This document shows, piece by piece, positions 12,246 to 64,000 of a DNA stretch of 64,000 nucleotides. Position numbers and translations under genes: made by a program. Positions within the stretch are counted from its first letter, which is position 1. Each line of letters opens with the position of its first letter. This DNA is from Oligoflexia bacterium (GTDB taxonomy: Bacteria > Bdellovibrionota > Bdellovibrionia > JABDDW01). The DNA is taken from assembly GCA_043732305.1 (NCBI GenBank), contig JAYTHU010000094.1, positions 562 through 64,561 on the forward strand. Reading direction: 5' to 3'. The notes below the pieces were generated by a model. It ran no database searches, was not told the DNA's origin, and was given only the letters and a program-made list of their open reading frames with translations.

Positions 12246-13748
12246 ATGCCCAAGGAGAATCTCTACGTGAACAAACTTGTGAACAAAACTATCGCGCTTA
12301 ATTTCACCTTACTTATATTTTTCATTTTAACTTTGGCCACAAACGCCGCGAGCGCCGCTGATCTTCAGTGGTCGGGTAGCTATCGCGCTGAAGGAAACTA
12401 TTTAAAGAATTTCACTTTCGACAATGGTGCCGGCAAAGAAGCCAGCTATATGACCAACCATTTGATTCTGTCTCCCAAAATTGTGGCCATGGACGGGCTG
12501 AATATCTATTCTCGCTTTGACCTCTTAAACAATGCCATTCAAAATAACTATTCTGGTCAGCCTTTAGGAACGTACACTGGGAACTTCACCAGCACCAGTG
12601 GACAATCATATCCACCTGCAGTCACAACTAATAGCCAAGGCAGCAATCAGACTTTCAATGTCACCGAGTTGTATATGAATTGGGTGAATGAATTCGGAGC
12701 CTTGGTTTTTGGTCGGGTGCCATTCGGATTCGGGCTCGGCATGCGATACAGCAAGGGCGAGGGCATGTTTGATCACTACGTGACCACTAAAGATATGGTG
12801 GGTTATCGTCTTGCCATCGGTAATTTTACTCTTATGCCAGCATACGGAAAAGTTAAAGAAGGCAATCTTCTTAATGAAGATGACATCAATGATTACATTG
12901 TGATGGCCGAATATAAAAATCCTGAATCTGATGTTGAATTTGGCGTTCTCTACGATCAGAGAATCGGCCCAGTAGATGCGAGTTCCCCCGTTAACGGCAA
13001 CGATATTCCCGCCACTTATTTTGATCCTACTGCAACCATTCAAGCTGGGTACAACGTCTACAACATGAATTTGTTTTTGAAAAAGAAAACCGAAAATTTC
13101 GATTTTGGCGTCGAAGGCGGATTTCAAAATGGTGATACAGGTGCGAGAACCTCTAGTGGGAAAATGGTTGATGTGGCTGGATTTGGTGTGGCCGCAGAGG
13201 CTACTTATCGTGCGGGCACTTTGACTTATAATTTACACGCAGGTATGGCAACTGGTGATAACCCCGATACCACTCGTTTTGAAGGATACTTTTTCAGCCC
13301 CAACTATAACTTGGCTATGATGATGTTTCATCATCCCATGGGACAGTATGATGCAATGAGATCTGCTCTTGCAGGATCTCGTCCTTGGCAATATTCATCC
13401 GACCCCGCAGTCCAAGCGCTTCAGGGTTTAGATACTGAAACAGTCAGTAATGCGATTTACCTTTCGCCTAAAGTCAGTTGGGCGATGGGCGAACGCTACG
13501 ATGCGACAGCAACTTTCTGCTACGCGATCACACAACAAAATCCACTGTCTGCCGCACTTGGCACCGTGGGTAACTCTCTTGGTTTTGAAATGGATTATGG
13601 ATTTAGATATCACATGGGCGATAAATTCGTGTGGGAGACAACAGTTGGTCTCTGGTTCCCAGGTTCTGCCTGGGCCGGAAGTCCTTCAAGCAACTACGCG
13701 ACCTCACTTGCTTATGGTGCAACTTCGAAAGCCGCCATCAACTTCTGA
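12246..13748 (+). CDS. Outer-membrane beta-barrel protein (porin or transporter-like).
   Basis: It has a signal peptide (LLIFFILTLATNAASAAD), alternating amphipathic G/Y/F/N-rich beta-strand pattern and a C-terminal aromatic residue (..AAINF), which is the typical OMP C-terminal signature. The true start may be GTG near 12267. Confidence 0.7.
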   Translation: MPKENLYVNKLVNKTIALNFTLLIFFILTLATNAASAADLQWSGSYRAEGNYLKNFTFDNGAGKEASYMTNHLILSPKIVAMDGLNIYSRFDLLNNAIQNNYSGQPLGTYTGNFTSTSGQSYPPAVTTNSQGSNQTFNVTELYMNWVNEFGALVFGRVPFGFGLGMRYSKGEGMFDHYVTTKDMVGYRLAIGNFTLMPAYGKVKEGNLLNEDDINDYIVMAEYKNPESDVEFGVLYDQRIGPVDASSPVNGNDIPATYFDPTATIQAGYNVYNMNLFLKKKTENFDFGVEGGFQNGDTGARTSSGKMVDVAGFGVAAEATYRAGTLTYNLHAGMATGDNPDTTRFEGYFFSPNYNLAMMMFHHPMGQYDAMRSALAGSRPWQYSSDPAVQALQGLDTETVSNAIYLSPKVSWAMGERYDATATFCYAITQQNPLSAALGTVGNSLGFEMDYGFRYHMGDKFVWETTVGLWFPGSAWAGSPSSNYATSLAYGATSKAAINF

Positions 13749-13821: not shown

Positions 13822-13852
13822 GCCCCCTGGGGAAACCCAGGGGTTTTTTGTT
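13822..13852 (+). terminator. Rho-independent terminator.
   Basis: CCCCTGGG-GAAA-CCCAGGGG hairpin followed directly by TTTTTTG, about 75 nt after the OMP stop codon. Confidence 0.8.
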
Positions 13853-13938: not shown

Positions 13939-14856
13939 TTACGGAGAAATTAGGACTATAAATTCTTGTTCATACTTCTGAAAGCCGGGATCAAGCATGA
14001 TGCGGAGAATGCTTGAAGAATAAAGTGGGGCTTCGGCTTCGGTTAGGTTTTTCCGAGGGATCAATCCAGAGAGAACAAATCCCTGGCCTGCGGGAATATT
14101 GATGCTCTCCGAAAAATCTTGAGAAACCACTCTGATTTCTCCGTTGGTCCCGCTCTCAGGGATGCTACGTTTAATATTGATTTTATAATCCGCGTTGTTA
14201 ACAGCGAAGTGACTCATGAAGACATCAATTTGAATTCCAATGTTTTCCCGAGATTTTGGCTCTTGGGAGATCTGAGAAAAATGCGCTTGTTGTTGTTGGT
14301 CGAGAGCATGAGTTTCTGAGCTCAAACTCTGCAGTACCCTTGGAGGTTTAATAGCCGTAACAACAGATCCTGGAGAGCCCACTGAAAGTCCCAATTTTTC
14401 CATGGTCTCCTTTGGAGCAAGTGCAAACTCAACTGTGATTTGATTTGAAATTTCAGCATCCACTGCAGATGGCGCAGCCGTGGCATCCGGCGATGCACTT
14501 GCTTCTGAAACAGCCGCAGTAGGGACTGCGTCGCTTTTGTTAACTGGAGCTATGGCCGAATCATTTAAAGGAATTGGCTTCGAAGCCTCAGTGTTTTGTT
14601 TCGTAGCTTTGTTGAGTTCTTTATTGAAATCATCCAAAGCATCGCCAGTTTTCAGAGTATTGGTTTTGATTTTGTCGTAGGAGTCGGAAATTTTAATAGC
14701 AAGAAACCCCGCCATACTAATAAGTGCGAGACCAACAACAATTAACCCGAACTTAGATCTAGTTCGGGGAGCGGTAAAGGATTTCATGTTCACGCCGCAG
14801 CTGGCACAGAACACGTCTTCTGGTTGCTCGAATTCACATTTAGGGCATTTGACCAT
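13939..14856 (-). CDS. Membrane protein with N-terminal zinc ribbon, one TM helix, an Ala/Pro/Ser-rich linker and a C-terminal secretin-like fragment.
   Basis: The N-terminus is CPKCEFEQ...CASCG (CxxC...CxxC). The TM helix is FGLIVVGLALISMAGFLAI. The C-terminal ...INIPAGQGFVLSGLIPRKNLTEAEAPLYSSSILRIMLDPGFQKYEQEFIVLISP aligns with the C-terminal core of the cpaC secretin in this window (ALSGLIRSE...PILSSIPLLGELFKSR...ELVIFVTP). Confidence 0.65.
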   Translation of the reverse strand: MVKCPKCEFEQPEDVFCASCGVNMKSFTAPRTRSKFGLIVVGLALISMAGFLAIKISDSYDKIKTNTLKTGDALDDFNKELNKATKQNTEASKPIPLNDSAIAPVNKSDAVPTAAVSEASASPDATAAPSAVDAEISNQITVEFALAPKETMEKLGLSVGSPGSVVTAIKPPRVLQSLSSETHALDQQQQAHFSQISQEPKSRENIGIQIDVFMSHFAVNNADYKINIKRSIPESGTNGEIRVVSQDFSESINIPAGQGFVLSGLIPRKNLTEAEAPLYSSSILRIMLDPGFQKYEQEFIVLISP

Positions 14857-14915
14857 ATAGAAAAGGATAACACATAAAAATTGGGCGCCAAAAGGAAGCT
14901 GTTGGAAAAAGTGTA

Positions 14916-14944
14916 TTGACGCAACGATCAGAAAACCTTAAAGT
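14916..14944 (+). promoter_or_regulatory. Candidate sigma-70 promoter of the mra operon (Pmra).
   Basis: TTGACG (14916-14921), a 17-nt spacer, then TAAAGT (14939-14944). It lies about 120 nt upstream of the mraZ ATG and overlaps the first AGTGG repeat. Confidence 0.4.
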
Positions 14945-14980
14945 GGAGTCAAGTGGGGCAGAGTGGTAGAAAGTGGTAAT
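14941..14980 (+). promoter_or_regulatory. MraZ-type operator: four direct AGTGG repeats at exact 10-bp phasing.
   Basis: The sequence is aAGTGGagtc aAGTGGggca gAGTGGtaga aAGTGGtaat, with repeats at 14942, 14952, 14962 and 14972. MraZ is known to bind phased direct GTGG/TGGG repeats just downstream of its own promoter. Confidence 0.6.
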
Positions 14981-15065
14981 TTACGACAGCATGCTCTCTG
15001 CTCCACTTCTAAGCCTAAGGATGGGCTTGGGCTTATTTGTATGCCCCCATTGAGGTAACCAGTTC

Positions 15066-15542
15066 ATGAAGAACACACAACCTTTCCGCGGTCGCTTTGA
15101 ACTTAAAGTCGATCCAAAATTTAGATTGTCTCTACCTTCCGCTTTTCGCGAAATATTAGATTCCGTTTCTCGCGCAGGCTCCACGCCGAGTACGGTAATC
15201 ACCAATAGTCAATATCAGGGCAAAAAGTGTCTTGATGTTTATCCCTCCGCTGAATGGACTAAGTTGGAAAATCGAATCGCCAAATTGCCACAACTAAAAT
15301 TGGAAGTTCAAAACTTTCAAAGATTTTATCTTTCAGGCGGTCACAATGTGGATCTTGATTCTCAGGGCCGCATACTGATCCCGTCCTCTTTAAGAGCATA
15401 CGCTCAAATTCAAACAGAAGTTGTGATTGTCGGATTTGCAGGCAAGTTCGAAATCTGGGCTGCAGAAATCTGGAATGGTCTATTTGAAACTCTCGCCGAA
15501 GACTTCACGCAAACACTTGCTGCTGTGAGTTTACTGGAATGA
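15066..15542 (+). CDS. mraZ: Transcriptional regulator MraZ.
   Basis: 158 aa with a duplicated MraZ fold. The N-terminus is FRGRFELKVDPKFRLSLPSAFRE and the second half is ...DSQGRILIPSSLR. It is the first gene of the dcw cluster. Confidence 0.9.
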   Translation: MKNTQPFRGRFELKVDPKFRLSLPSAFREILDSVSRAGSTPSTVITNSQYQGKKCLDVYPSAEWTKLENRIAKLPQLKLEVQNFQRFYLSGGHNVDLDSQGRILIPSSLRAYAQIQTEVVIVGFAGKFEIWAAEIWNGLFETLAEDFTQTLAAVSLLE

Positions 15543-26381: not shown

Positions 26382-26457
26382 AAAAAATCCCCCGATTTTC
26401 GCTTGGCGATCAATCGGAGGATGGGGGGTTCTCAGGGGGATGAGAACTTTAATTCTT
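26382..26457. terminator. Bidirectional terminator region between convergent murG and the secreted-protein gene.
   Basis: Hairpin 1 is TCCCCCGATT(26388-26397)...AATCGGAGGA(26412-21) with an A-run 26382-26387. On the minus strand this is a 10-bp stem followed by a U-run. Hairpin 2 is GTTCTCA(26428-34)-GGGGGA-TGAGAAC(26441-47) followed by TTTAATTCTT on the plus strand. Confidence 0.65.
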
Positions 26458-28024
26458 AGTTAGTAGTAGATCTTGATCCAACGGATGAGCGCAATGGACC
26501 CAATCCAGTAGCTGGACTCAAGGCAGCGACTTTTGCTCCATTGTTACCGAAGGGAGATAAACCGGGAAGATTTACATCGGTTGCTGTTGCACTTCTTCCG
26601 CAAACACGAGCCTGATGATTTTGTCTCATGAGAGCATTTAAGTTGTCGTTGAAGTCAGTAGAATCAGCGGCTGTGTTTCCAGCACCGCAAGTGAAGCTGC
26701 TTGCAGCACTTGAAGCTGCCGTGTTGTCGGCAAGTGCAGAGGGTGCCCCGTCAAGACTGAATCCGAATGTTCCACCGGTTGCGACTGTTCCATTTTTGCC
26801 AGCTGACTTTGCATATTTTTGAATGTCTGAATCTAAAGATTTAGTGATCGCAGTCAATCCAGCATTTGAAGAAGCTTGCACGCTTGAAAGATTTGCTCCA
26901 AATTGAGCGTAAGCGGGGTTTGCAGCTACCAAGTCTTTAGCAGAGTATCCACTGACACCTTCAACAAAGTTTTTCTTTGCCACTGCGGCCATATCAGTTA
27001 CATTTTGACCAGCTTGTTTATATTCAGCGGCCATCGCGACCACTTGGCCGCGAATAGCGTTGGCACCAGCAATATCACCAGATGCTGCCAAGACATGAGC
27101 TCGATTAATATGTTCTTGAAGGAGCGTGTGCATTTTATCGAATCGTTGATACTGTGCGCTGGCTTGAGACATCAATGCATTATTGAGAAGTGCTTTGGTT
27201 GCGAAGTCTGAACTTTTGTTGCCACCGCTTCTGATAACATCGTTGAAATAACTCACAAAAGCAGAGTCTCTATCATTCACACCTGCGATCACATCATTAG
27301 TGTATTTTTCTGTGACTAAAGCGAGCAATTCGTTTCCGCGTTTTTTATCGACCGCTTTGTCAGATGCTAAGTAGTTTTCAATCTTATCTTTAGCGTAATC
27401 CATTCGAGCTTGGCTGGAAATGGTGTCGTCATTGATAAAGTTTTTCAAAAGAGTCTGCGCTTTTTTGGCGGCGTCATTTTTTGATTTAGCAGAAGCTTCA
27501 GAATTTTGGCTTATTGCCAATTGGGCATCTATCTTATCAGTGAAACATTTTGCGCGATCATCACCTTCGATTTCAATTCCGTCTTTATCTTCTTTGCAAT
27601 TCTTTTGAGCGAGATCATGCTCTTTTATTTCTTTATTGGTGAGTTTCGAAGTGTCTTTTCCTTGATCTAATTTTGCTACAATTTGAGCAGCCTGTTCTTT
27701 TGCTTTAGCTAAAGTAGACAATTCGTCTGCGCCTGCAGAAACCGTAAGGTCAGCATCTTTTAATTCACTCATTCGATCTTTATGATTTTTGAAATCGATA
27801 GTGGTGTTCTTTCCTTTTTGAATGATGTCGTATACGTAATCGTTGTTTATGAGGAGCCCGGAAGACAGTGTCTTCACTTCGCTCGCGATCACAGACATTG
27901 GTGCTGGTGGCCCCATCAGTTCAGTAGCTTTGGCCATGCTGTAATAAGCGATGGTGAACAGTAATGTCAGACCGAGTGTTAAATAAATCTTCTTCATAAA
28001 TTCTCCCTCTGAGATCGTTATCAC
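26456..28024 (-). CDS. Secreted low-complexity protein: K/A/D-rich helical region plus S/G/A/T-rich tail.
   Basis: The signal peptide MKKIYLTLGLTLLFTIAYYSMAKA means the real start is probably near 27995. The protein is highly charged and coiled-coil-like, with scattered Cys residues and a C-terminal low-complexity tail. No catalytic motif recognised. Confidence 0.6.
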   Translation of the reverse strand: MITISEGEFMKKIYLTLGLTLLFTIAYYSMAKATELMGPPAPMSVIASEVKTLSSGLLINNDYVYDIIQKGKNTTIDFKNHKDRMSELKDADLTVSAGADELSTLAKAKEQAAQIVAKLDQGKDTSKLTNKEIKEHDLAQKNCKEDKDGIEIEGDDRAKCFTDKIDAQLAISQNSEASAKSKNDAAKKAQTLLKNFINDDTISSQARMDYAKDKIENYLASDKAVDKKRGNELLALVTEKYTNDVIAGVNDRDSAFVSYFNDVIRSGGNKSSDFATKALLNNALMSQASAQYQRFDKMHTLLQEHINRAHVLAASGDIAGANAIRGQVVAMAAEYKQAGQNVTDMAAVAKKNFVEGVSGYSAKDLVAANPAYAQFGANLSSVQASSNAGLTAITKSLDSDIQKYAKSAGKNGTVATGGTFGFSLDGAPSALADNTAASSAASSFTCGAGNTAADSTDFNDNLNALMRQNHQARVCGRSATATDVNLPGLSPFGNNGAKVAALSPATGLGPLRSSVGSRSTTN

Positions 28025-32099: not shown

Positions 32100-33407
32100 A
32101 TGAAATTCGCCCACTTCCTCATCACAATCCTCCTTTTGCCAGTTATTTTCATGGTTGGCTGCGGAGATTCTAACGTCAGTGGGGATCGTATTTTGCTGGC
32201 GTTTGATAATGGGACCGGACACTACGTTAAGAAAGAAGTGACTCTTAAATATGTGACGGATTTGGCTCACATGCAGGATAAAGCAGTCACGGTAAACTAT
32301 GGCGGAACGCTTCATGTTGAAGCCCAGCCTAATGGTCAAAATATGCGAGCTTATTTTGAAAAAGGGCGCGCTCCTAACGCTCAATTCATAAAATCCTCTG
32401 GCGTTTTAATTCCACAAGATTATGACACTCGGATTATGGCCACTATTCTCTTTTCGTATGAGCAACTGAAAGATTTTTACGAAAGTTTGGGCGCCACTTC
32501 TAAAATGACCTTCCCTCAAACTGTCTATGCTCAGGCCAAAATTATGGATGGTGCAGGAAAAGTTTCTGGTGACAATGCAGCTTACATTTCAACATTTGAT
32601 GCTTTTATTTTTTGGCTTTTTGATCTTCCCTCAATGTATCCCATTCCTCTTAACACTGGAATTATTGCCCATGAGTATTTTCACAGCGTGTTTACGTCTC
32701 TCACTCCAAAAACAACTTTGATGCAGAACAAGCCTGATACATCTGCTGACTTGCTCGAAATGTGGAGAGTCGCGGCGGATCCAAGGATTGTAGCCGATGG
32801 CAATTACTTTTCAGATTTATGCCAAGGTAAATCAAATCTTCATCTCGTGAACAGCGGCGCGCTAGTGGCAAGCAATTTTTATATTTTCTCTGCCATCAAT
32901 GAAGGTATGGCTGATTACTTCGGTTATCTATATTCAACAAACCCAGGATGGATTGCCGCTTCACTCGATGGTCAGATACCGCGTGATCTGCGACACGAAA
33001 ATATTTTAAACTGTTCAGTTGAAGAGCAAGGGGCTTGGATATATGGAGCAGCTCAAAATCTGCTTCGTCTAAAAGATCGACGCATTCGGCCCATGGAACG
33101 TGATGTGCTGCCGGACATTCACATGTACGGTTCTATTTGGTCTCATTTTTTATACTCTGTAGATATCGGTCGAAAAAATCAGGGGCTTCCTGCCAGTACA
33201 CCAAAACAAGTTCTCGAATTCGCAAAAAAAATCGATGATCTCTTCAGTAATACTTCTCCCACAAAAATTATTAGTCTCGGTGATTTGGCTCAAATTTTTA
33301 TAGAATCTGGAGACATTGACTTCGCAGTTTGTGAAAGCGTGAGAAAAGTTTTTCCGCAAAGCAAATCGGCAATACACGAAGCCTGTTTTAAAGGTGGGGT
33401 TTTATGA
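32100..33407 (+). CDS. Lipoprotein with an HExxH motif (putative zinc metallopeptidase).
   Basis: Lipobox at the end of the signal peptide (VIFMVGC). An internal IAHEYFHSV (HExxH) motif is present. No closer family assignment possible. Confidence 0.6.
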   Translation: MKFAHFLITILLLPVIFMVGCGDSNVSGDRILLAFDNGTGHYVKKEVTLKYVTDLAHMQDKAVTVNYGGTLHVEAQPNGQNMRAYFEKGRAPNAQFIKSSGVLIPQDYDTRIMATILFSYEQLKDFYESLGATSKMTFPQTVYAQAKIMDGAGKVSGDNAAYISTFDAFIFWLFDLPSMYPIPLNTGIIAHEYFHSVFTSLTPKTTLMQNKPDTSADLLEMWRVAADPRIVADGNYFSDLCQGKSNLHLVNSGALVASNFYIFSAINEGMADYFGYLYSTNPGWIAASLDGQIPRDLRHENILNCSVEEQGAWIYGAAQNLLRLKDRRIRPMERDVLPDIHMYGSIWSHFLYSVDIGRKNQGLPASTPKQVLEFAKKIDDLFSNTSPTKIISLGDLAQIFIESGDIDFAVCESVRKVFPQSKSAIHEACFKGGVL

Positions 33408-49759: not shown

Positions 49760-51295
49760 CTACGGTCTGAAGTAGTCGTGCAGCGTAGAAGTGTGCGGTT
49801 GGGGATGGGGCGTGTCTTTGGTTTTTTGTCTTTTCCATTGTGCTAGGTCCGTCACTCTGTAATTTTCTGCAGCTTGATCCAACTCAACTTCTGACATCCA
49901 CAATCCAGATTTTGCATACTGCTCCTGATCCGCTTTTATAATAGGAGCGACCATCATCGCCGCCACTCGTTTCACACCGGCAATCATCGCGATCATTGAG
50001 CTTGGAACATCTGGCGTGTAATCCACAGGAATGCTTGAAATCAAAGATGAGATTCTCCAGGCCCAGGGGATTGATCTTGTTGCCCAAAGAACTTTCGCTA
50101 ATTCAGATTCAACACCATCATGAATTTTGTAACCAAGATCTCCCATCATGTGGAGCATGGCGCGTAAGGTGGAATCTTTTTCCCAAGAGTTTCTAACAAG
50201 TCGCACGTCAGTCCAGTCAGCAGCGATATCAAATCGGGAATCGATTTCCATGTCGGCAGGAACCATCATTGGTCCTTGAGAAATACCAATACCCTTGAGA
50301 AAAGCTTTGTCCTTAAAATCAATGTTACTTTTGTGTTCAGGCAGAATGACGGTATCAGTTGAAGCACTCTTAAAACCTTCGTAAGCGACTTGTTCGCACG
50401 ACATTTTGGTGTGATCGTCAAAATCTAGAGCGTAGTTGTAAGGAATGTAGGTGCCAGTTTGTTTCTTTTGCATCACTAGGTTGTAAATATAATCTGACGC
50501 ATCACTTGCAAGCTGAGGTTCTTTAGCTCGAAGTATAAGAATGCGTGCGTTTTCATTTTTTAGGGCATAGACAAGGTCAAACGTCGCGACGCCTTTACCA
50601 ATATAAGATTCAATAGATTCTGTTTCTGCCCCGACGTGCATAAAAACAATGTGACTGAAGAGTGCGCTTTTTTCCGGCAAGCTTGAGATCAAGCTAGAAG
50701 AATAAAGTGAGACTCCTTTGGTGATCATGATGTCACCATTGCGGAATTTGAATCGCACGTCCTGTCCGTCTAGTCCATTTGCGTAGTGGGCGGGAGAATA
50801 AGTTTGCATCGCTTGAGAGGTGCGATCATAAAGTGGCGCTGGATTTAATGGAGTTTCGAATGTTCCGCCACCAACGGTTTCAGATGCAATCTGCCTGACA
50901 TCACTGGAAGCCGCGTAATAATAAACGCTAATGTAGTCTTCAAGTGCTCGCGAATATCGGAAATAATTTTTCATTTCGCGCGCGCAAACATCGGACATTC
51001 CAGCAAGATGGTTGTGAAACTCTAACCTAGTCTGGAACAAGTTTTCCAAAATAACTTTTCCATCCTGTTCAACTGCCAACCGATCCATATCTTTTGGAAT
51101 GAGAGCTTTTACGTAAGTCACCGCCGGAGTGAGTTCGGCTAAGCAGCGGCTGGGGTCTAAGGAATGAGTGCGAGCAAACGCGAGAAGATTTTCGGAATTA
51201 TTTAATGGTTTGGATAAAAAAGTGTCCGCAAATGAAGTTGAACCAATAAACACAAAGGTCCCAAGCAAAATTAAAACTATCCGCTGTTTTTTCAT
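49760..51295 (-). CDS. Secreted hypothetical protein, co-transcribed downstream of rpoH.
   Basis: 511 aa with signal peptide MKKQRIVLILLGTFVFIGSTSFA. It contains an ordered His (..FSHIVFMHVG..) then Cys (..TKMSCEQVAYEGF..) pair. The stop codon lies only 7 nt from the fliA stop on the opposite strand. Confidence 0.55.
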   Translation of the reverse strand: MKKQRIVLILLGTFVFIGSTSFADTFLSKPLNNSENLLAFARTHSLDPSRCLAELTPAVTYVKALIPKDMDRLAVEQDGKVILENLFQTRLEFHNHLAGMSDVCAREMKNYFRYSRALEDYISVYYYAASSDVRQIASETVGGGTFETPLNPAPLYDRTSQAMQTYSPAHYANGLDGQDVRFKFRNGDIMITKGVSLYSSSLISSLPEKSALFSHIVFMHVGAETESIESYIGKGVATFDLVYALKNENARILILRAKEPQLASDASDYIYNLVMQKKQTGTYIPYNYALDFDDHTKMSCEQVAYEGFKSASTDTVILPEHKSNIDFKDKAFLKGIGISQGPMMVPADMEIDSRFDIAADWTDVRLVRNSWEKDSTLRAMLHMMGDLGYKIHDGVESELAKVLWATRSIPWAWRISSLISSIPVDYTPDVPSSMIAMIAGVKRVAAMMVAPIIKADQEQYAKSGLWMSEVELDQAAENYRVTDLAQWKRQKTKDTPHPQPHTSTLHDYFRP

Positions 51296-57043: not shown

Positions 57044-57511
57044 ATGTCAATGCTTGCGCGCTATAAGAAACCAGGTGGAGTGGAACAGCTGCTCTCACTT
57101 CTCGAATCATGCTTGAGTAAGAAGAAAGAACTTTTGCTTAACACCATCATGCAGGAAGACAAAGCTTTCGGCGAAATGATCAAAGCCAAAATTCTCACCG
57201 TCGATAAAATTCTAAAATGGGATCCGCTTATTGTGTCAGAAGCCTCTGCTAAAGTGGGAGAACGAACTCTCGCTGTGGCACTCAAAGGACTTCCTGAGGA
57301 AGCTTTTGCGGTTCTCACGCACACGATGCGAGATTTAAAGAAACGCGAAATTGCGAATCTTCTTGAGACAGTCAAACCAACTAATGTCGAAATCGAATCT
57401 GCTTTTATCAAGATCATTGAAAAAGCTCGCGAGCTCGAACGCTCCGGGCAAATCAAACTTGATGAAAACGAGATGCCCATTATTGGTGTTGCGATGGCCA
57501 AAGCCGCTTGA
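57044..57511 (+). CDS. Standalone FliG-C-terminal-domain-like protein.
   Basis: 155 aa. The C-terminal half LAVALKGLPEEAFAVLTHTMRDLKKREIANLLETVKPTNVEIESAFIKIIEKARELERSGQI matches the FliG_C pattern (LALALKG..nMSqRaae.l.edle.lgpvr..dVEeAq..Iv...r.L...GeI). A GGAGG ribosome-binding site sits upstream. Confidence 0.65.
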   Translation: MSMLARYKKPGGVEQLLSLLESCLSKKKELLLNTIMQEDKAFGEMIKAKILTVDKILKWDPLIVSEASAKVGERTLAVALKGLPEEAFAVLTHTMRDLKKREIANLLETVKPTNVEIESAFIKIIEKARELERSGQIKLDENEMPIIGVAMAKAA

Positions 57512-57517
57512 GCAGAT

Positions 57518-58651
57518 TTATGTGATCTCTTCTAGCAGGTAGCCGAAATCTTCGGCTCCACGCAAAAGTGCGGTCTGAGAAACTACTCTCAGGCCGTTTT
57601 TTTTTGAGCAAATAATAACAACATCAATGCTGTCCACAATGATTTGTCTGACGGCATGCATGCTCCATTGGGAACACGCTCTGAGCACTAAAGATTCCAA
57701 ACGCTTCAGCGCATGTTGTGCAGAATGTGCGTGCAATGTGCAAATGGCTCCTCGGTGGCCAGTTGAAAGCGCGTCCAATAGTGTCAGCGCCTCTGCGCCT
57801 CTCACTTCGCCCACCACAATTCGATCGGGTCTCATGCGCAAAGTATTTTTCAACAAAAGCGAAAGATCTACCGCTGGAATTAAACCTTCTGGATCAGGTC
57901 GGGTGATCATTGTCACGTGGTGAGGGCCAACACTTCCGAGCTCCGGGGTATCCTCCAATGAAACGATTCTCTCACTCGGTGAACATTCTTTTAGAACCGC
58001 ACGCATGAATGTGGTTTTGCCCGAACCGGTAGCCCCGCAAACTAAAATATTTTTCTTTTCCGAAATCCATCCCCGTAGCTGTCCTAAAAATGTCTGTGAA
58101 AACATTCCCTGCAGCAGAAGATCGTTTAGTCCCCAGTTCTGGTGCCCGTGTTTTCTAATCGTCACAACGGGAGTCTGACTGATGGGTGGTAGACTTAGGT
58201 GCACGCGGGCATTTTCAAAAACTCCGTCTACCAGCGGATGCCGAATGTCGCCTGTTTTATCGATAAGTTTCAGAAGGTTTTTAATAAATCGAGAATAGAT
58301 CACCGGTGAGGAAAAACCATTTTCAGCTCTAAACAGCAATCCTGATTTTTCATAGAAAATTTGATCGTGAGAATTTGCGCAAATTTCGGTAACCTCAAGA
58401 TCGTCTAATAATTTTTGTAGCGGTCCAAATCCATCAATCTCAGACTTTAGTTCTCGAATCCAATCGGCAATATCACCTTCGCTAGACTCGTAAATTTTAT
58501 GGCCTTCGCTATTTTCGTAGGATTGGTATTTAGTTAAAATCAAATTGATCGTGTGATCCGTGGTATTTTCATCTATGCCAGCCAGCACTTCATCGACCAA
58601 TTGCGAGAAGTCAGGCTTTTGACGAAGATCCATTAGAAGTCTTCTTTCCAA
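57518..58651 (-). CDS. cpaF: CpaF/TadA-family secretion ATPase (VirB11 superfamily).
   Basis: Walker A LVCGATGSGKTTFM, an Asp box and a His box (RMRPDRIVVGEVRGAEALTLLDALSTGHRGAICTLHA). 377 aa. Confidence 0.85.
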   Translation of the reverse strand: MERRLLMDLRQKPDFSQLVDEVLAGIDENTTDHTINLILTKYQSYENSEGHKIYESSEGDIADWIRELKSEIDGFGPLQKLLDDLEVTEICANSHDQIFYEKSGLLFRAENGFSSPVIYSRFIKNLLKLIDKTGDIRHPLVDGVFENARVHLSLPPISQTPVVTIRKHGHQNWGLNDLLLQGMFSQTFLGQLRGWISEKKNILVCGATGSGKTTFMRAVLKECSPSERIVSLEDTPELGSVGPHHVTMITRPDPEGLIPAVDLSLLLKNTLRMRPDRIVVGEVRGAEALTLLDALSTGHRGAICTLHAHSAQHALKRLESLVLRACSQWSMHAVRQIIVDSIDVVIICSKKNGLRVVSQTALLRGAEDFGYLLEEIT

Positions 58652-59961
58652 AATTGTTTGATGGGGGCTTCAGAATAATGTTCCGGAGAAATCACCCTTG
58701 GGGTTACAAAAATAACCAGTTCAGAATTATTTTCCTTATAGTCTCGACTTTTAAACAACTCGCCAAGCAGTGGTATTGAACTCAAAATTGGGGTGTCTTG
58801 TACACCACGCCCAATCTCACTTCTAATCAATCCCGAGAGCGCAATCGTTTTCTCCCCACGAATATCAAAGTGTGTTTCGATTCGATTGGTTAAAAATCCC
58901 GGAATACCATCAACCTTATGTGCTTCATCTATCAGACTTACTTCCGTCACAAGTTTAGTGGAAATGCCGCTTTGAGAATCGGCTCGAGGAGTGATATCTA
59001 AAATGACTCCGTAGCGTTTCCAAATCACATTTGCTAATTGCCAGCTCATGAGTTTGATTGGGATTTCTCCACCTGCAACAAAATGAGCCTGTTCGCCACT
59101 TCTGCAAATAATTTTAGGATTGGCGATGACTTTCCCGGCATGCTCTTCCATCTGTGCGTTTAGCTGCAAGTTCATGGGGTTTAAATTTCCCATGAAAGAT
59201 CCTAAATCCGCAGACGGAATAATTGTTCCAGAAAAGCTTTGTGGAAAAGCTAAACCTAAATTTCTAATTTTATTTTTTTTAACTTCGGCAATGGTGATGT
59301 CAATTTCGACCATGGGTTTAAGTTCCACTCGCGATGACTCTTCTGCTGCGGGGAGTCCCCAGTCTTTAGCTATTTCATCTACCATTTTGCGCTCTTTAAC
59401 ATCCTGTGTGGCCGTGACAAGTTTCAGATGGCCATGATGGGCTTCTACGTTAGTAGAAAATAGAGCTCGAGATTCCAAATCTTTTTCTATAGCCACTTGA
59501 ACATCTTTGGCCGCGTTTTCTGAAAGTGTGAGTTCAAGATCGACAATTTGGGGATAAGAATTTTTAGCAGTGGAAAAGGTGATCCAATCGTCTAAAGATT
59601 CGCAGGCTCCTTTGATAAGAATTTTCTTGGGACTCATTGCTATTTCATATCCGGTTACGCCAGTCAGTGCCGATTCTAAAAACTTCTTTGCGGGTTCAAG
59701 TTTGGTTGGATAGACAACTACTTTCATGGGAAGTTTTGTACCGGCTTTTAAAAAAGCTTCTCCTGGCTTTTTGCCAATGAGAATGAGATTGGTCTTCTGC
59801 CTTTTTAAAATCACACTCTGTGCGCTGGTGAGAGACACCTCGACAGATGATTTGTACGGCAGAATTTTCTGTTCCCCAACCATCAGATCAATTTCGGTGG
59901 TGGCGGAAGCTTCGTTTACGATCACTAAAATAAGTAGGAACAAGAATACGATTATTTTCAT
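58633..59961 (-). CDS. cpaC: Tad/Flp-type secretin (CpaC/RcpA-like).
   Basis: Signal peptide, N-terminal BON/secretin-N-like region and a C-terminal secretin core (NPKIICRSGEQAHFVAGGEIPIKL...SSIPLLGELFKSR...ELVIFVTPRVI). It overlaps cpaF by 19 nt. Confidence 0.85.
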   Translation of the reverse strand: MKIIVFLFLLILVIVNEASATTEIDLMVGEQKILPYKSSVEVSLTSAQSVILKRQKTNLILIGKKPGEAFLKAGTKLPMKVVVYPTKLEPAKKFLESALTGVTGYEIAMSPKKILIKGACESLDDWITFSTAKNSYPQIVDLELTLSENAAKDVQVAIEKDLESRALFSTNVEAHHGHLKLVTATQDVKERKMVDEIAKDWGLPAAEESSRVELKPMVEIDITIAEVKKNKIRNLGLAFPQSFSGTIIPSADLGSFMGNLNPMNLQLNAQMEEHAGKVIANPKIICRSGEQAHFVAGGEIPIKLMSWQLANVIWKRYGVILDITPRADSQSGISTKLVTEVSLIDEAHKVDGIPGFLTNRIETHFDIRGEKTIALSGLIRSEIGRGVQDTPILSSIPLLGELFKSRDYKENNSELVIFVTPRVISPEHYSEAPIKQFWKEDF

Positions 59962-60074: not shown

Positions 60075-61154
60075 TTACACATCAAAACTCACGGTGGTTT
60101 GGTTTTCGGAAGATTCAATTTTGATCTCTGAACCATGCGCCCGCAAGAGACTTTGGCTGACCGCAAGCCCCAACCCCATGCCCTGCGAGTGATTTAAAAT
60201 ATTTTCATCTAGGTTAAAAGGTTTTAAAATATGTTCGATCTGACTTTCGCTCAAAGCTGGACCATGATTTGAAATTTCCACTTTTCCTGGCTCTTGCAAA
60301 CTCACTACGATTTCTGAACCTTCGTCAGAAAATTTAACGGCATTGTGAATAATTTTTTTCACAACTTTTGCCATGAGCATTTCGTCAATTTCTGCTTTTT
60401 CAAAACCCCAATTAAATTTCATCCGGAGATTTTTCTTAGTCAACTGATTAATAAAAATCTTTTCCACATTTTCAATCACTAAGCGCAGAGATGATTCTTT
60501 TTTTCTAACCGTCATCTGGCGCGTCTCTGCTGCGAGCAGATCTAGGACATCAAAAACGATATCGTTCAATCGAGCTAAGCCTTGATTGACTCTTAGAAGA
60601 TATTTAACATGGTCAGGATTTTTTAATTCTTCACTCAACAAAGAAAGATAAGACGTCATAGTGGTCAACGGTGTTTTTAATTCGTGGCCAATCAAAATCA
60701 TGAAATGACTTTTTGCTTCGTCTAATGTTCGAAGTTCTCGATTAGCTGCTTCTAACTTTTTATTTTTCTCTTTCACTTCCGCGCGCAGATCATAACTTTC
60801 GATTGCTTTTTTAATGACGATATCGAGTTCCACTGGATCCCAGGGCTTAGTGATATAGCGATAAATCTGGCCATTGTTGATAGCCGCAATTACAGAATCG
60901 ACATCGGTGTAACCGGTGAGAAGAATGCGAATGGCATCTGGCTGAACTATTTGAGCCTTTTCAAACATTTGCACGCCTGTCATTTCCGGCATGCGCTGGT
61001 CACTTAAAATCAAATGTACTTTTTCTTTTTGCAATATTTTTAGCGCTTCGAAGCCGGAAAAAGCTTTGAAGACGGTATAGTCCCTCCGGAACTGACGCTC
61101 CAGGGAGTCGACAATATCTTTTTCGTCATCAACGACGAGAATCGCATGCTTCAT
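60075..61154 (-). CDS. Hybrid response-regulator receiver / histidine kinase (REC-HisKA-HATPase_c).
   Basis: N-terminal REC domain (ILVVDDEKD...LILSDQRMP...ITKPWD), HisKA motif (IGHELKTPLTTM) and HATPase_c (GMGLGLAVSQSLLRAHG). It has no TM segment, so it is cytoplasmic. Confidence 0.85.
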   Translation of the reverse strand: MKHAILVVDDEKDIVDSLERQFRRDYTVFKAFSGFEALKILQKEKVHLILSDQRMPEMTGVQMFEKAQIVQPDAIRILLTGYTDVDSVIAAINNGQIYRYITKPWDPVELDIVIKKAIESYDLRAEVKEKNKKLEAANRELRTLDEAKSHFMILIGHELKTPLTTMTSYLSLLSEELKNPDHVKYLLRVNQGLARLNDIVFDVLDLLAAETRQMTVRKKESSLRLVIENVEKIFINQLTKKNLRMKFNWGFEKAEIDEMLMAKVVKKIIHNAVKFSDEGSEIVVSLQEPGKVEISNHGPALSESQIEHILKPFNLDENILNHSQGMGLGLAVSQSLLRAHGSEIKIESSENQTTVSFDV

Positions 61155-61349: not shown

Positions 61350-63311
61350 ATGATAAAACTCAATAGTTTCTATACGATGTTAGTTGTAATACTTTTCACC
61401 ACGAATGCTTGGGCACAATTGGTTTCGCCGAGTATTGCTGCAAATCCAAACGAAGGGTTGTGGGGAACAGGTGCTGGTGGCCTCGTACAAACTTGTCAGA
61501 ACGGTGCTAGCCTAGCAAAGACAATTGATATCAATGAAGACGATGATGTTCGTGAAGCGCGTGATGCTGGTCGCGAAGCAAAAAGTCACTTAGCAGAATT
61601 AAAGACTAAGCTCGCCGAAATAAAATCGACAAATAAGAATCAAAAAAGTGACCTTCGCCATGCATTTAGTGTTGGAAGTGAAGCTGATTCATTTTTTCAG
61701 ACCGTGACCGCTTGTCAGGAAGTTTTCGATGAAGGAAACAATGCAGAGAAGAGAATCGCTGCAGACGACAAGACCTATCCTAAGCAGAGTGATAAAACTA
61801 ATGCAATATCTGCAGCTCGAGAAACCGCCATTAATTCTCGATTTACTAATGAAACTGGAGATACAGGCAGCAGTGTTCGTGGAGGAGACAAAATAACTAA
61901 TTGCAGACAGGCCGTGTCGCAAGGTGGGGCTCACCCTAGTAAATTTATTGATGCCAAATTACTCTGTGGCGTTCACGATGGACCAGTTGAAAGTGTTTTG
62001 GGCGGATCAACTGACCAAGTTCACCACTCTAAGACTGATGTTGTAGCCTGTCAAAAATCAGCAAGTGGTTTACTAGAAAATATCGAAGCCGAAAGAGTTG
62101 CACAAGGTGAATTTGATAAAGCAAAAAAAGACCTCAGCAAACAAACATCAGAAATCTCAAAAACTATTGCGAAGCGTAAACGTGAGTTAGCCAAAGATTA
62201 CGCTGATGACAAAAAGCTCGCGAAAGAATTGGGCGAAGATGATTCCGGAATCAATTTCACCGATAGCGCCATGGGCGTTCGTGATTGCAAAGATGGAACC
62301 TGCGGTATTGTTCGTGTTGTTGGCGCTAGCAACAACAACAATGACATGTTCGATAAAATTGGTCCCATCATGTTGGGTGCAACTCTCATCGAAACTTTAG
62401 GCAGTGTTTACAACGCTTCGGCTGGACAAAGAACTTGTAAATCATATGGTTATTGCGCTCCTCAGGGACCCAATTACTGGATGCAGCCTGCACAAACTCT
62501 GAACAATGGTATTTCCAATTACGCGCAGCTGGCTTTGCTGAATCAAAAACTCAACAGTTCGGGTTATGGATATCCAATGTCTGGTATTGGCACTGGAATG
62601 GGCAACGGCGCGTTTAGCTGCGCACAACTTGTCGGGTCATCGATTTACAATCAAGTTGGTCAAAATGGAAATATTCTCGGGCCTTATTCTGCTCAGCAAT
62701 CACCTTACGCACAATTGTTGCAGCAACAGCAAGGCCGTTTCAATCCAATGATGAATGGCCAAGTGGGCGTCATGCCAGTCGGTAACGGACAAATGATGTA
62801 TAATCAAAATGGCCAGCTTGCAGCCAACTGCATTCAATTTCCTTGCAACACCAGTGGTCTTGGCAACACACAGGTTTATAATCCTGGAGTGTTTAACGGA
62901 AACGGAAACCAGTCTGGTGGCAATCAGTTCGGCAACAATCAATTTGGCGCTAACGGCGGACTCAACAATTTCAATTCAGGGATTTACGGGCAAAATGCGG
63001 GTGGAGTAAATATGGGTGCTGCCGTTTATGCGGACTCAATGCGTGAAGCTCAACAAGCTCAGTATCTTATGGGTGCTAGCCAGGCGGGCCTTTCATTTGC
63101 TCAGCAATCTCAGTATTTCGGTGGAAACACCGGCGCCATCAGCAACGGCAATGGTCAAAACCAATTCAATTTGAATTTGAGTTACAATCCTGCCAATTCA
63201 AACGGAGCAAGTAGTCCTTTTGGATCTCAATATGGTTTGCCCACGCTAGGTACCGGTGGAAGCACTTATCTGCCTGGCGTGACCACTGGCGCCTCAGTCT
63301 TCGGTAGATAA
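61350..63311 (+). CDS. Secreted protein with a charged helical N-terminal half and a long Q/N/G-rich prion-like C-terminal half.
   Basis: Signal peptide MIKLNSFYTMLVVILFTTNAWA. It has about 10 Cys in the N-terminal half. The C-terminal ~300 aa is dominated by Q, N, G, S and Y (QQSPYAQLLQQQQGRFNPMMNGQ...NGNGNQSGGNQFGNNQFGANGG...). Confidence 0.65.
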   Translation: MIKLNSFYTMLVVILFTTNAWAQLVSPSIAANPNEGLWGTGAGGLVQTCQNGASLAKTIDINEDDDVREARDAGREAKSHLAELKTKLAEIKSTNKNQKSDLRHAFSVGSEADSFFQTVTACQEVFDEGNNAEKRIAADDKTYPKQSDKTNAISAARETAINSRFTNETGDTGSSVRGGDKITNCRQAVSQGGAHPSKFIDAKLLCGVHDGPVESVLGGSTDQVHHSKTDVVACQKSASGLLENIEAERVAQGEFDKAKKDLSKQTSEISKTIAKRKRELAKDYADDKKLAKELGEDDSGINFTDSAMGVRDCKDGTCGIVRVVGASNNNNDMFDKIGPIMLGATLIETLGSVYNASAGQRTCKSYGYCAPQGPNYWMQPAQTLNNGISNYAQLALLNQKLNSSGYGYPMSGIGTGMGNGAFSCAQLVGSSIYNQVGQNGNILGPYSAQQSPYAQLLQQQQGRFNPMMNGQVGVMPVGNGQMMYNQNGQLAANCIQFPCNTSGLGNTQVYNPGVFNGNGNQSGGNQFGNNQFGANGGLNNFNSGIYGQNAGGVNMGAAVYADSMREAQQAQYLMGASQAGLSFAQQSQYFGGNTGAISNGNGQNQFNLNLSYNPANSNGASSPFGSQYGLPTLGTGGSTYLPGVTTGASVFGR

Positions 63312-63330: not shown

Positions 63331-64000
63331 TTAGTACGCTGCCTCAGTCACTCTGTGGCTGGGGTTGGCGTTGTTTGACTGATTTTCGCCCTGTTTAATC
63401 GCAACAATCGTCCCAATTGTAACAACACTTACTCCCACCCAAAACCACGGGGATCTAGTCAGTTTTGAAAACCAACTATTGCCACGCTTTACTGGGGTAA
63501 ATTCAGATTTACCTACCAAGTCAATTTTTTGCACTAATTTTTCTTCCTTGATAGGAAGTCGTGAAATTTTTGTGACATCTTTCATCAATGCTTTTGGAAT
63601 GTCTCCGGGAAGAGTTGGGGTTTCGGCGACGATCATGATTTGTCGGCCCTTGAGATCGAACCAAGAATCCCCGTCGTAAACTCTGAGACATCTGCCATCA
63701 TCAAACACGGTGACTAGTCTAGTGTGCGCAGGCAGGAAGAGTTTTTTGTCCACGCTGGGTTGTTCACAGCTTCCAAGCACAAGCGGTTCTGGTTTGAATA
63801 CGAATGAGATGAAGTTATCGCGACTGCTGATTCCCGTGATATTTTGGGCTTCGAAGTTTTCCACCTGCCATGAACTTCCTGGAATCAAAACAGCCCATTG
63901 ATGTTTCCCGGTATAAACCTTAGTTTTTCCAGAGACTTCAATAAATTTCTGTCCATCTAAGTAAATGAGACTCGAGCGTGGCACTTGAATTTTCAAAGTC
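63331..64000 (-). CDS. Hypothetical C-terminally membrane-anchored protein, possibly partial.
   Basis: The first in-window Met is at 63996. If that Met is not the true start, the reading frame would continue past the window end. It has a C-terminal TM helix (WFWVGVSVVTIGTIVAI) and a short N/Q-rich tail. No recognised domain. Confidence 0.4.
   Translation of the reverse strand, partial: TLKIQVPRSSLIYLDGQKFIEVSGKTKVYTGKHQWAVLIPGSSWQVENFEAQNITGISSRDNFISFVFKPEPLVLGSCEQPSVDKKLFLPAHTRLVTVFDDGRCLRVYDGDSWFDLKGRQIMIVAETPTLPGDIPKALMKDVTKISRLPIKEEKLVQKIDLVGKSEFTPVKRGNSWFSKLTRSPWFWVGVSVVTIGTIVAIKQGENQSNNANPSHRVTEAAY

Follow-up and report, generated by a model that had tools for sequence, protein, structure and literature searches.

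A minimal secretin-core homolog joined to a predicted inner-membrane anchor and a cytoplasmic zinc ribbon in Bdellovibrionota

We analysed a gene on the reverse strand of a 64,000-nucleotide stretch of DNA from an Oligoflexia bacterium (contig JAYTHU010000094.1; the whole stretch is called the window here) and found that its product joins an N-terminal C4 zinc ribbon, one predicted transmembrane (TM) helix and a low-complexity linker to a C-terminal domain homologous to the core of secretins. By definition, secretins are free channels of the outer membrane, and they depend on N-terminal rings, pilotins and partner proteins for their targeting and for their connection to the inner membrane. What appears to be new is the fusion, by way of a linker, of a secretin core with a cytoplasmic zinc ribbon and an anchor in the inner membrane, in a protein that, judged from its sequence, fails several canonical features of the class and passes core homology. 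We consider this account of architecture and homology very likely to be correct. For the functional model that we favor, an inner-membrane-tethered secretin-type ring, we estimate a probability of about 0.5. The gene and the parts of its product (amino acids, aa) are as follows.

13939..14856, minus strand: whole coding sequence, 305 aa plus stop, ATG start; zinc ribbon, TM anchor, linker and minimal secretin core
14785..14856, minus strand: predicted cytoplasmic C4 zinc ribbon, residues 1-24 (MVKCPKCEFEQPEDVFCASCGVNM); from conservation, Zn_ribbon_3 and a predicted local distance difference test (pLDDT) score of 96-97
14689..14784, minus strand: residues 25-56, basic stretch (K25, R31, R33, K35) and hydrophobic signal-anchor or TM helix (~36-56); from the apolar run and the model
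14455..14688, minus strand: juxtamembrane helix (57-84) and disordered Ala/Ser/Pro/Thr-rich linker (85-134), predicted to be periplasmic; from composition and pLDDT 51-72
13942..14454, minus strand: complete but minimal secretin-core homolog, residues 135-305 (171 aa); from hhalign, family hidden Markov models (HMMs), Foldseek and pLDDT 94-98

The gene belongs to a conserved, single-copy family

The open reading frame (ORF) is a real, conserved gene. Its product runs from MVKCPKCEFEQPEDVFCASCGVNM at the start through a basic stretch, the apolar FGLIVVGLALISMAGFLAI and an Ala/Ser/Pro/Thr-rich stretch to a beta-rich C-domain that ends in EFIVLISP. The peptides quoted in a preliminary description of this DNA (GQGFVLSGLIPRKN, APLYSSSILRIMLDPGFQ and EFIVLISP) were all found in the translation, and the layout given there (zinc ribbon, TM segment, linker, secretin-like domain) was borne out by the ORF, the family alignment and the structural model.

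A word-indexed search returned two relatives only, with 37-40% identity, and its repetition with a deep alignment added little and no names. An exhaustive HMM search covering 1.84 billion representatives yielded 592 homolog representatives at E<=1e-3, of which 197 reached E<=1e-10; almost all have a length of 300-370 aa and are matched end to end. Several of the analyses below use a 142-member family alignment (A3). Members named in public sources are all annotated as "hypothetical protein", for example MBK9294572.1 from an Oligoflexia metagenome-assembled genome (MAG). Among named genomes, full-length members come from MAGs assigned to Bdellovibrionia, Oligoflexia or Bdellovibrionales and from one more that is labelled only "Proteobacteria bacterium" and shows the same synteny; in phyletic terms, the named genomes carrying the family are all Bdellovibrionota. 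The family HMM detected no paralog of the gene within the window. The gene thus has the behaviour expected of a core gene of Bdellovibrionota that is present once, is passed on vertically and sits in a stable block.

Conservation is concentrated at the N-terminus. Thirteen columns of the family alignment are at least 90% conserved; eleven lie in the zinc ribbon (C4, P5, C7, F9, Q11, P12, D14, C17, A18, C20 and G21), and the other two are G207 and G264 of the C-domain. The C4 motif is present in 133 of the 142 members and 106 match Pfam Zn_ribbon_3; the full-length window protein on its own gives only a sub-threshold match to this model. The preliminary description had raised the possibility that the ribbon was an artefact of a wrongly chosen start. 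This can be set aside, because the ORF call holds no alternative in-frame start codon upstream and the ribbon columns are conserved across the homologs. Since these columns are the most conserved of all, we take the zinc ribbon and the start codon to be real and the cytoplasmic module to be the part under the strongest constraint.

Family profiles identify the C-terminal domain as a secretin core

On profile evidence, the C-terminal 171 residues are a genuine, highly divergent secretin core. The comparator was the canonical secretin encoded in the same window.

58633..59961, minus strand: canonical CpaC/RcpA-type secretin, outside the locus; PF00263 1e-32

Searches with the single sequence gave little. 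Pfam returned no Secretin match to the full-length window protein even at E<=10, NCBIfam returned nothing useful, and BLASTP against the window's CpaC-type secretin was not significant (E 2.9 and 37). When the isolated domain was compared with 24,736 Pfam families, Secretin was the sole match, at E 0.015-0.028 and 15.3 bits against a cutoff of 27.5 bits. Taken by itself, the single-sequence Pfam Secretin test would read as a refutation; because the later profile results were significant, we regard the single-sequence searches as insufficient rather than negative.

The profile comparisons gave a different result. We aligned the family, by hhalign, with 32 CpaC-type secretins collected from the window's own secretin, and obtained a probability of 96.7% and an E-value of 3.7e-10 over 195 columns. 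A restricted alignment (A2) of 11 sequences, namely the window protein, the two word-search homologs and eight orthologs from syntenic loci, contains none of the exhaustive-search matches and still gave 96.4% and E 1.1e-9. Searched against 177,635 PDB sequences, the A2 profile ranked secretins in the top five places (GspD, EpsD and an Acidithiobacillus secretin; E 2.4e-5 to 1.2e-3), with its positions 136-312 co-linear with GspD 404-583. The 142-sequence profile again placed secretins in the top six, and across both family profiles the secretin E-values ranged from 2.4e-5 to 2e-3. Five of the 142 members match PF00263 independently, the best at 6.8e-5. Within the window the relation is reciprocal: the best non-self match of the family HMM is the secretin ORF (E 2.5e-6), and that of the CpaC HMM is the zinc-ribbon ORF (E 0.0077).

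The structural model pointed the same way. The AlphaFold2 (AF2) model built on the 142-sequence alignment, which superseded a mediocre one from 3 sequences (pLDDT 63), has a mean pLDDT of 85.8, and its C-domain reaches 94-98 and contains long beta-hairpins. In a Foldseek search of the PDB, the top 13 matches were all secretins of the T2SS (type II secretion), type IV pilus and Tad classes (best E 2.6e-4, probability 0.90-1.00), and InvG of the type III secretion system (T3SS) came next after these and one unrelated match.

These results uphold the secretin similarity claimed in the preliminary description, only at the level of family profiles, and correct its extent. The similarity had been placed at residues ~190-305 and taken as only the last part of the fold. 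In the hhalign alignment, residues 134-305 pair with CpaC 214-431, which is the entire core including the first 'V.I.vaEV' strand, and the segment lengths match apart from a shortened Gate 1 and the missing tail and S-domain. The direct comparison with the window's cpaC secretin that had been proposed fails in BLASTP and succeeds in hhalign.

The core is complete in outline and lacks most of Gate 1

To describe what is kept, we compared segment lengths between the conserved anchor residues of the hhalign alignment in the family and in CpaC-type secretins, with the structural features (gates, amphipathic helical loop) defined as in PMC10499894. Interquartile ranges (IQR) are given where available.

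First strand to hinge (lip region): family median 64 aa, 50 in the window protein; CpaC-type 63
Gate 1 segment (hinge to Gly): family 14 aa (IQR 14-14); CpaC-type 24 (IQR 24-24); GspD ~31
Gate 2 region: family 56 aa; CpaC-type 59
Amphipathic-helical-loop region: family 34 aa; CpaC-type 37
Tail past the last strand: family 9 aa; CpaC-type 28

Two parts of the domain are located in the window as follows.

14236..14280, minus strand: Gate 1 position, residues 193-207, reduced to a short hairpin turn; from segment length, with G207 in 134/142 members
13963..14067, minus strand: residues 264-298, from the end of the 'sGLiPR' strand through short helices (amphipathic helical loop region) into the first part of the last strand (EFIVLISP); from hhalign

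By alignment, the strands of both barrels, outer and inner, persist in the core, as do the regions of Gate 2 and of the amphipathic helical loop. Residues 264-298 pair with 'LSGLI...IPLLGELFKS..F....SELVIFVTP' of CpaC in hhalign; G264 is conserved in 128, P267 in 123, F292 in 123 and E298 in 93 of the 142 members, and the AF2 model has helices at 276-293. The length of the C-domain is nearly constant in the family (186 +/- 7 aa). The missing parts are the signal peptide, the N0-N3 domains, the S-domain and most of Gate 1. No member of the 142 matches a Pfam N-domain, and in the place of such domains residues 57-134 form a helix and a disordered low-complexity linker.

The apolar segment is probably an uncleaved signal anchor

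In the window protein the apolar segment follows the basic stretch and covers 19 residues from residue 36 (36-54), while the family median is 16 residues starting at about residue 43-46. The signal peptides of the 32 true secretins instead have a 12-residue apolar run at residue 3. No lipobox was found in any of the 142 members. The absence of a signal peptide noted in the preliminary description therefore agrees with an apolar run that is internal, longer than in true secretin signal peptides and free of a lipobox. The anchor is modelled as a helix, and the predicted helix extends to residue 84. Because the run is long and internal, follows the Cys4 ribbon and continues into a helix, the data favor an uncleaved N-in signal anchor that would place the secretin core in the periplasm; this topology is one that we infer, and cleavage is possible.

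The separation of the inner and outer membranes is ~20 nm in B. bacteriovorus (bioRxiv 10.1101/2022.06.13.496000). The linker between anchor and core is 80 aa in the window protein and 93 +/- 16 aa in the 142 members, most of which exceed the window protein in this respect, and its composition in the family is A 17%, S 12%, P 9% and T 9%. Secretin barrels reach well below the outer membrane. Given the linker length, an envelope of this depth and barrels that hang below the outer membrane, a 28-aa helix followed by a 50-aa extended chain could plausibly span the gap between the inner membrane and the foot of a barrel associated with the outer membrane.

The gene adjoins the 5' end of the dcw cluster

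The zinc-ribbon gene is divergent from mraZ and shares with it an operator-bearing intergenic region, as the preliminary description had stated.

15066..15542, plus strand: mraZ (PF02381 4.9e-25), which opens the divergent dcw cluster ahead of rsmH, ftsL and ftsI
14916..14944, plus strand: sigma-70-like promoter of mraZ and the dcw cluster (TTGACG, 17 nucleotides, TAAAGT), from a consensus scan; TTGACG is kept in syntenic loci
14943..14976, plus strand: MraZ operator, four GTGG boxes at exact 10-bp spacing, beginning at the 3' end of the mraZ -10 element

The dcw neighbours are clearly identified (rsmH PF01795 2.1e-87; ftsI PF00905 1.8e-86). We then examined synteny in the 25 loci with enough flank. 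In 21 of them the zinc-ribbon gene lies at the 5' end of the dcw cluster and is transcribed divergently from it; mraZ is present in 14 of these and missing from 7.

Loci with mraZ (14): the window, L001-L007, L010, L018, L020, L025, L035, L040
Loci without mraZ, the gene lying directly at rsmH-ftsL-ftsI (7): L012, L019, L028, L031, L038, L043, L047

BLAST clustering separates the members next to dcw into at least five subgroups that diverge deeply, and the RsmH proteins of six mraZ-less metagenome loci are 49-51% identical to that of the window. The four loci away from dcw (L014-L016, near holA, and L017) form one tight subgroup. Unannotated ORFs of ~263 aa and ~176-200 aa are recurrent neighbours.

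The GTGG boxes with 10/10/10 spacing were found in the window and in six related loci (L001, L002, L004, L005, L006 and L035), and were absent from the seven intergenic regions examined in mraZ-less loci (L012 and six others). They lie 87-120 nucleotides upstream of the ATG of the zinc-ribbon gene. MraZ as a regulator of this gene is thereby weakened as a candidate; since the arrangement persists in seven loci without mraZ or boxes, MraZ control is not required. The dcw context asserted in the preliminary description thus stands for the 5' end of the cluster and is not tied to MraZ. Because a single-copy, vertically inherited core gene is kept at this boundary, the results suggest that it serves the envelope in a housekeeping capacity and is not part of an accessory secretion system.

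Further features were seen on the dcw side. The mraZ leader contains a conserved hairpin between the MraZ boxes and the mraZ start (window 15011-15028, plus strand, AAGCCTA-AGGA-TGGGCTT), whose stem shows compensatory changes in related loci: GCCCA/TGGGC in L001-L003 and L010, GTCCA/TGGAC in L004 and L006, and GGTCCA/AGGACC in L005. The loop (nGGA) is conserved too, the hairpin was scored as terminator-like in the consensus scan, and no Rfam match was found in the shared intergenic region. The called RsmH ORF has an N-terminal extension of ~30-50 aa relative to the window RsmH in L019 (MKKYKPGTGEKIAVVEEVVPPKVELPFEF) and L028, and probably in L031, L038 and L047.

Start region, other neighbours and other carriers of the zinc ribbon

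An extended -10-like element (TGTTATCCT, window 14864-14872, minus strand) ends 7 nucleotides before the ATG of the zinc-ribbon gene, and no Shine-Dalgarno motif precedes this ATG. Because of these two features, the sequence suggests that the mRNA is leaderless or has a very short leader. Among 28 family loci, a TGnTA...T-like element 7-13 nucleotides ahead of the start was seen in 7, and Shine-Dalgarno-like motifs in only 7.

The convergent neighbour (window 12246-13748, plus strand) encodes 500 aa with a signal-peptide-like N-terminus and a C-terminal Phe. It has no Pfam match, is probably an outer-membrane beta-barrel, and is not kept beside the zinc-ribbon family in other loci. A strong GC-rich hairpin with a T-run, scored as a terminator by the consensus scan, follows it at 13824-13843.

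The canonical secretin gene overlaps that of a CpaF-like T2SSE ATPase (57518-58651). The pair is flanked by a gene for a 155-aa protein (57044-57511) that matches the FliG C-terminal domain (PF01706, with a weaker ARM-repeat match) and by one for a hybrid response-regulator/histidine kinase (60075-61154). Genes for pilins, TadB/C or CpaB were not seen in the window. Elsewhere in the window, five long ORFs of 221-653 aa match no Pfam family at E<=0.001-0.01: 26456-28024 (minus strand), 32100-33407 (plus), 49760-51295 (minus), 61350-63311 (plus) and 63331-63996 (minus).

The zinc-ribbon module, M.CP.CGF.QP.D..CA.CG, was also found on other membrane proteins. Two unrelated loci join it to T2SSF platform proteins of the GspF/PilC/TadB type (L013:6001-7197, 1.7e-27; L051:1543-2868, 3.6e-19), the first of these in a Myxococcota MAG. 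A place in a pilus cluster was ruled out for the L013 gene, whose neighbours include no pilus genes. The module further occurs on several TPR proteins with or without a retropepsin-like protease, and four loci (L023, L027, L030 and L036) encode fusions of the module with TPR and a retropepsin-like aspartyl protease. We know of no earlier description of either the T2SSF or the TPR/retropepsin architecture. The T2SSF fusions give the module a weak but recurrent association with type-IV-filament components; otherwise it looks like a promiscuous cytoplasmic docking element.

A tethered secretin-type ring and its alternatives

In the model that we favor, the protein would be bitopic, with the C4 ribbon in the cytoplasm, one uncleaved signal-anchor helix across the inner membrane and ~80 aa of helix and disordered linker crossing the periplasm. 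The core would most likely form a secretin-type multimeric ring. As every subunit would be tethered to the inner membrane, the assembly would anchor itself and span the envelope, with its secretin ring at or in the outer membrane, and a ring of conserved zinc ribbons on the cytoplasmic face could dock a partner.

Several observations weigh against this model. Ring formation and outer-membrane insertion are read from homology, and insertion is where the model is least secure, given the trimmed Gate 1 and the absence of targeting determinants: the parts that target and stabilise secretins (signal peptide, N-domains, and S-domain with its pilotin site) are all missing in the family. An outer-membrane pore with a trimmed Gate 1 might also be leaky. 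The Foldseek TM-scores are low (0.20-0.26) with a large root-mean-square deviation. Low scores are expected, because a lone protomer with a 134-residue non-domain N-terminus was compared with subunits taken from 13-15-mers, and the predicted fold is assigned by ranking, probability and sequence profiles, not by tight superposition. The net charge (K+R minus D+E) is +1.8 before and +0.8 after the TM segment, a modest positive-inside bias. In the 25 loci, no gene for secretion (type II, III or IV), for pili, Tad systems included, or for filamentous-phage assembly was a conserved neighbour. Finally, the downstream genes recur too, so that the synteny may come from a stable genomic block and not from a functional link.

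A bolder form of the model is possible, if doubtful. Here 12-16 copies would build a one-gene envelope-spanning machine, with a Gate-1-less barrel at the outer membrane, chains that each pass through the periplasm and the inner membrane as well, and a cytoplasmic ring of invariant zinc ribbons, coupling both membranes physically and informationally in Bdellovibrionota and independently of pilus or secretion systems. Such coupling might act, for example, while these bacteria go through their unusual filamentous non-binary division or remodel their envelope.

The alternatives can be ranked on the same evidence. Inner-membrane-anchored ring formers exist in SpoIIIAG and the inner rings of T3SS. 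By analogy, the ring might stay in the periplasm near the inner membrane as a scaffold or collar and never enter the outer membrane. We think this unlikely, while taking it more seriously than the readings that follow. It would account for the lack of a signal peptide, N-domains and a pilotin-binding S-domain; a trimmed Gate 1 would be harmless without a membrane pore; the lip region varies in length (50 aa here against the family median of 64); and the tether would hold the domain near the inner membrane. However, a long Pro/Ala-rich linker of fairly narrow length range in 142/142 members is then hard to explain, and the family retains, with conserved hydrophobics, the amphipathic-helical-loop region that is membrane-sited in real secretins (PMC10499894).

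The preliminary description had proposed that the protein might cap, plug or dock onto a true secretin. In such a case it would form no ring of its own and would dock on, cap, plug or co-assemble with a canonical secretin (PilQ, GspD or CpaC-type), tethering or regulating it. The genome does encode at least one canonical secretin, separate inner-membrane secretin tethers are known (OutB/GspB; PMC9239104), the placement of CpaC in Caulobacter is under the control of ZitP, a bitopic protein with a zinc ribbon (PMC5182063), and two unrelated loci carry the same module on T2SSF platform proteins. The neighbourhood speaks against this possibility, since a secretin gene, like the pilus and secretion genes above, was never a conserved neighbour in the 25 loci, and the window CpaC lies 44 kb away. 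Known tethers bind N0 by HR domains and not by the secretin core, and a complete core with all barrel strands exceeds the needs of a plug. We know of no mixed secretin rings. Altogether, docking on another secretin seems to us a clear outsider.

It is very unlikely that the C-domain is a monomeric periplasmic beta-domain for sensing or binding, whose signal the zinc ribbon relays in the manner of an anti-sigma factor or ZitP and whose kinship with secretins is evolutionary only or due to chance. The failed or sub-threshold single-sequence tests, the low TM-scores and the promiscuity of the module (TPR, retropepsin-like protease and T2SSF fusions) would suit it. Its chance form is effectively excluded by family-level tests with different methods and targets, namely hhalign (E 1e-9 to 4e-10), the ranking in the PDB-wide HMM search, the Foldseek ranking and the reciprocal in-window matches; the alignment is co-linear across the whole core with signature motifs at both ends, and the loci have no conserved sigma-factor or regulator neighbour except mraZ, itself dispensable for the arrangement.

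Least likely of all is that the hydrophobic segment is a cleaved or processed export signal with a zinc-ribbon N-extension, releasing a free minimal outer-membrane secretin: the run is only 15-18 residues in many members and a free core would resemble N-domain-poor secretins, but the run begins at about residue 46 after a folded, extremely conserved zinc ribbon, measures 16 residues against 12 in true secretin signal peptides with the helix continuing to residue 84, and lacks a lipobox, while a discarded leader would not be expected to be the most conserved part and a conserved 90-aa linker would be pointless once cleaved.

Significance

If the tethered-ring model is true, the family would reveal what a secretin core can do alone, in assembly, in targeting and in gating without Gate 1, and it would widen the secretin superfamily past secretion and pilus machines. 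The family points to an uncharacterised envelope component at the division and cell-wall cluster of predatory bacteria. The protein is a compact candidate for pore engineering and structural work, and ~590 clusters that are now "hypothetical protein" could gain an annotation.

Comparison with known systems

The preliminary description had called the zinc-ribbon/TM/secretin fusion an undescribed class of secretin. We likewise found none in the literature or in annotation, within a limited literature coverage in which absence is no proof, and found no Pfam or NCBIfam model that combines a secretin core with a membrane anchor and a cytoplasmic domain. The 'rose-like complex' seen by electron cryotomography in B. 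bacteriovorus was considered and dropped as a host for this protein: nothing links the two, and its authors favor an identity resembling a type I secretion system.

With canonical secretins (GspD, PilQ, RcpA/CpaC, InvG and phage pIV; PF00263) the family shares co-linear homology over the whole core, including the motifs 'V.I.vaEV', the hinge 'F.G', the Gly of 'yGi.L.i.P', 'sGLi', the amphipathic-helical-loop region and 'sE(F/L)vIFi.P'. It differs from them in that a predicted cytoplasmic zinc ribbon and TM anchor replace the Sec signal peptide, in that N0-N3 or other periplasmic rings, the S-domain (tail 9 vs 28 aa) and a full Gate 1 are missing, and in that it has no secretion or pilus genes nearby and the window sequence falls below the Pfam gathering threshold.

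Secretins with few N-domains offer a partial likeness. In Tad RcpA, the secretin core works with a single VirB9-like N-domain (PMC10499894), and GspD-like secretin homologs of mitochondria are mentioned in PMC9239104. Gate 1 is full in these proteins, which are exported by signals of their own, keep one or more N-domains or a partner, and work with dedicated partners from pilus or secretion systems; they have neither a membrane anchor nor a cytoplasmic domain.

OutB/GspB is a separate, inner-membrane-anchored protein that tethers the secretin (PMC9239104). Like GspB/OutB, GspC and PilP, the family has an N-terminal TM anchor and a periplasmic region that would link the inner membrane to a secretin (PMC9239104). 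Those proteins are separate chains whose HR domain binds the secretin N0, whereas the family is one chain without HR or N0.

ZitP of Caulobacter crescentus, a bitopic zinc-ribbon protein, governs the polar placement of the CpaC secretin in a manner tied to the cell cycle (PMC5182063). It resembles the family in size (~310 aa), in its cytoplasmic N-terminal CxxC...CxxC ribbon, in its single TM segment and in having a periplasmic C-domain (PMC5182063). Its ribbon is of the zinc_ribbon_5 type (PF13719) with a 19-residue spacer and its C-domain is DUF3426, whereas the family has a Zn_ribbon_3-type ribbon with a 9-residue spacer and a secretin core; no member gave a Pfam match to PF13719 or DUF3426, only Zn_ribbon_3/DZR-type matches being found. 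In the tethered-ring model, the tether role that GspB/OutB, GspC and PilP play elsewhere and a ZitP-like role would be merged with the secretin core in one chain.

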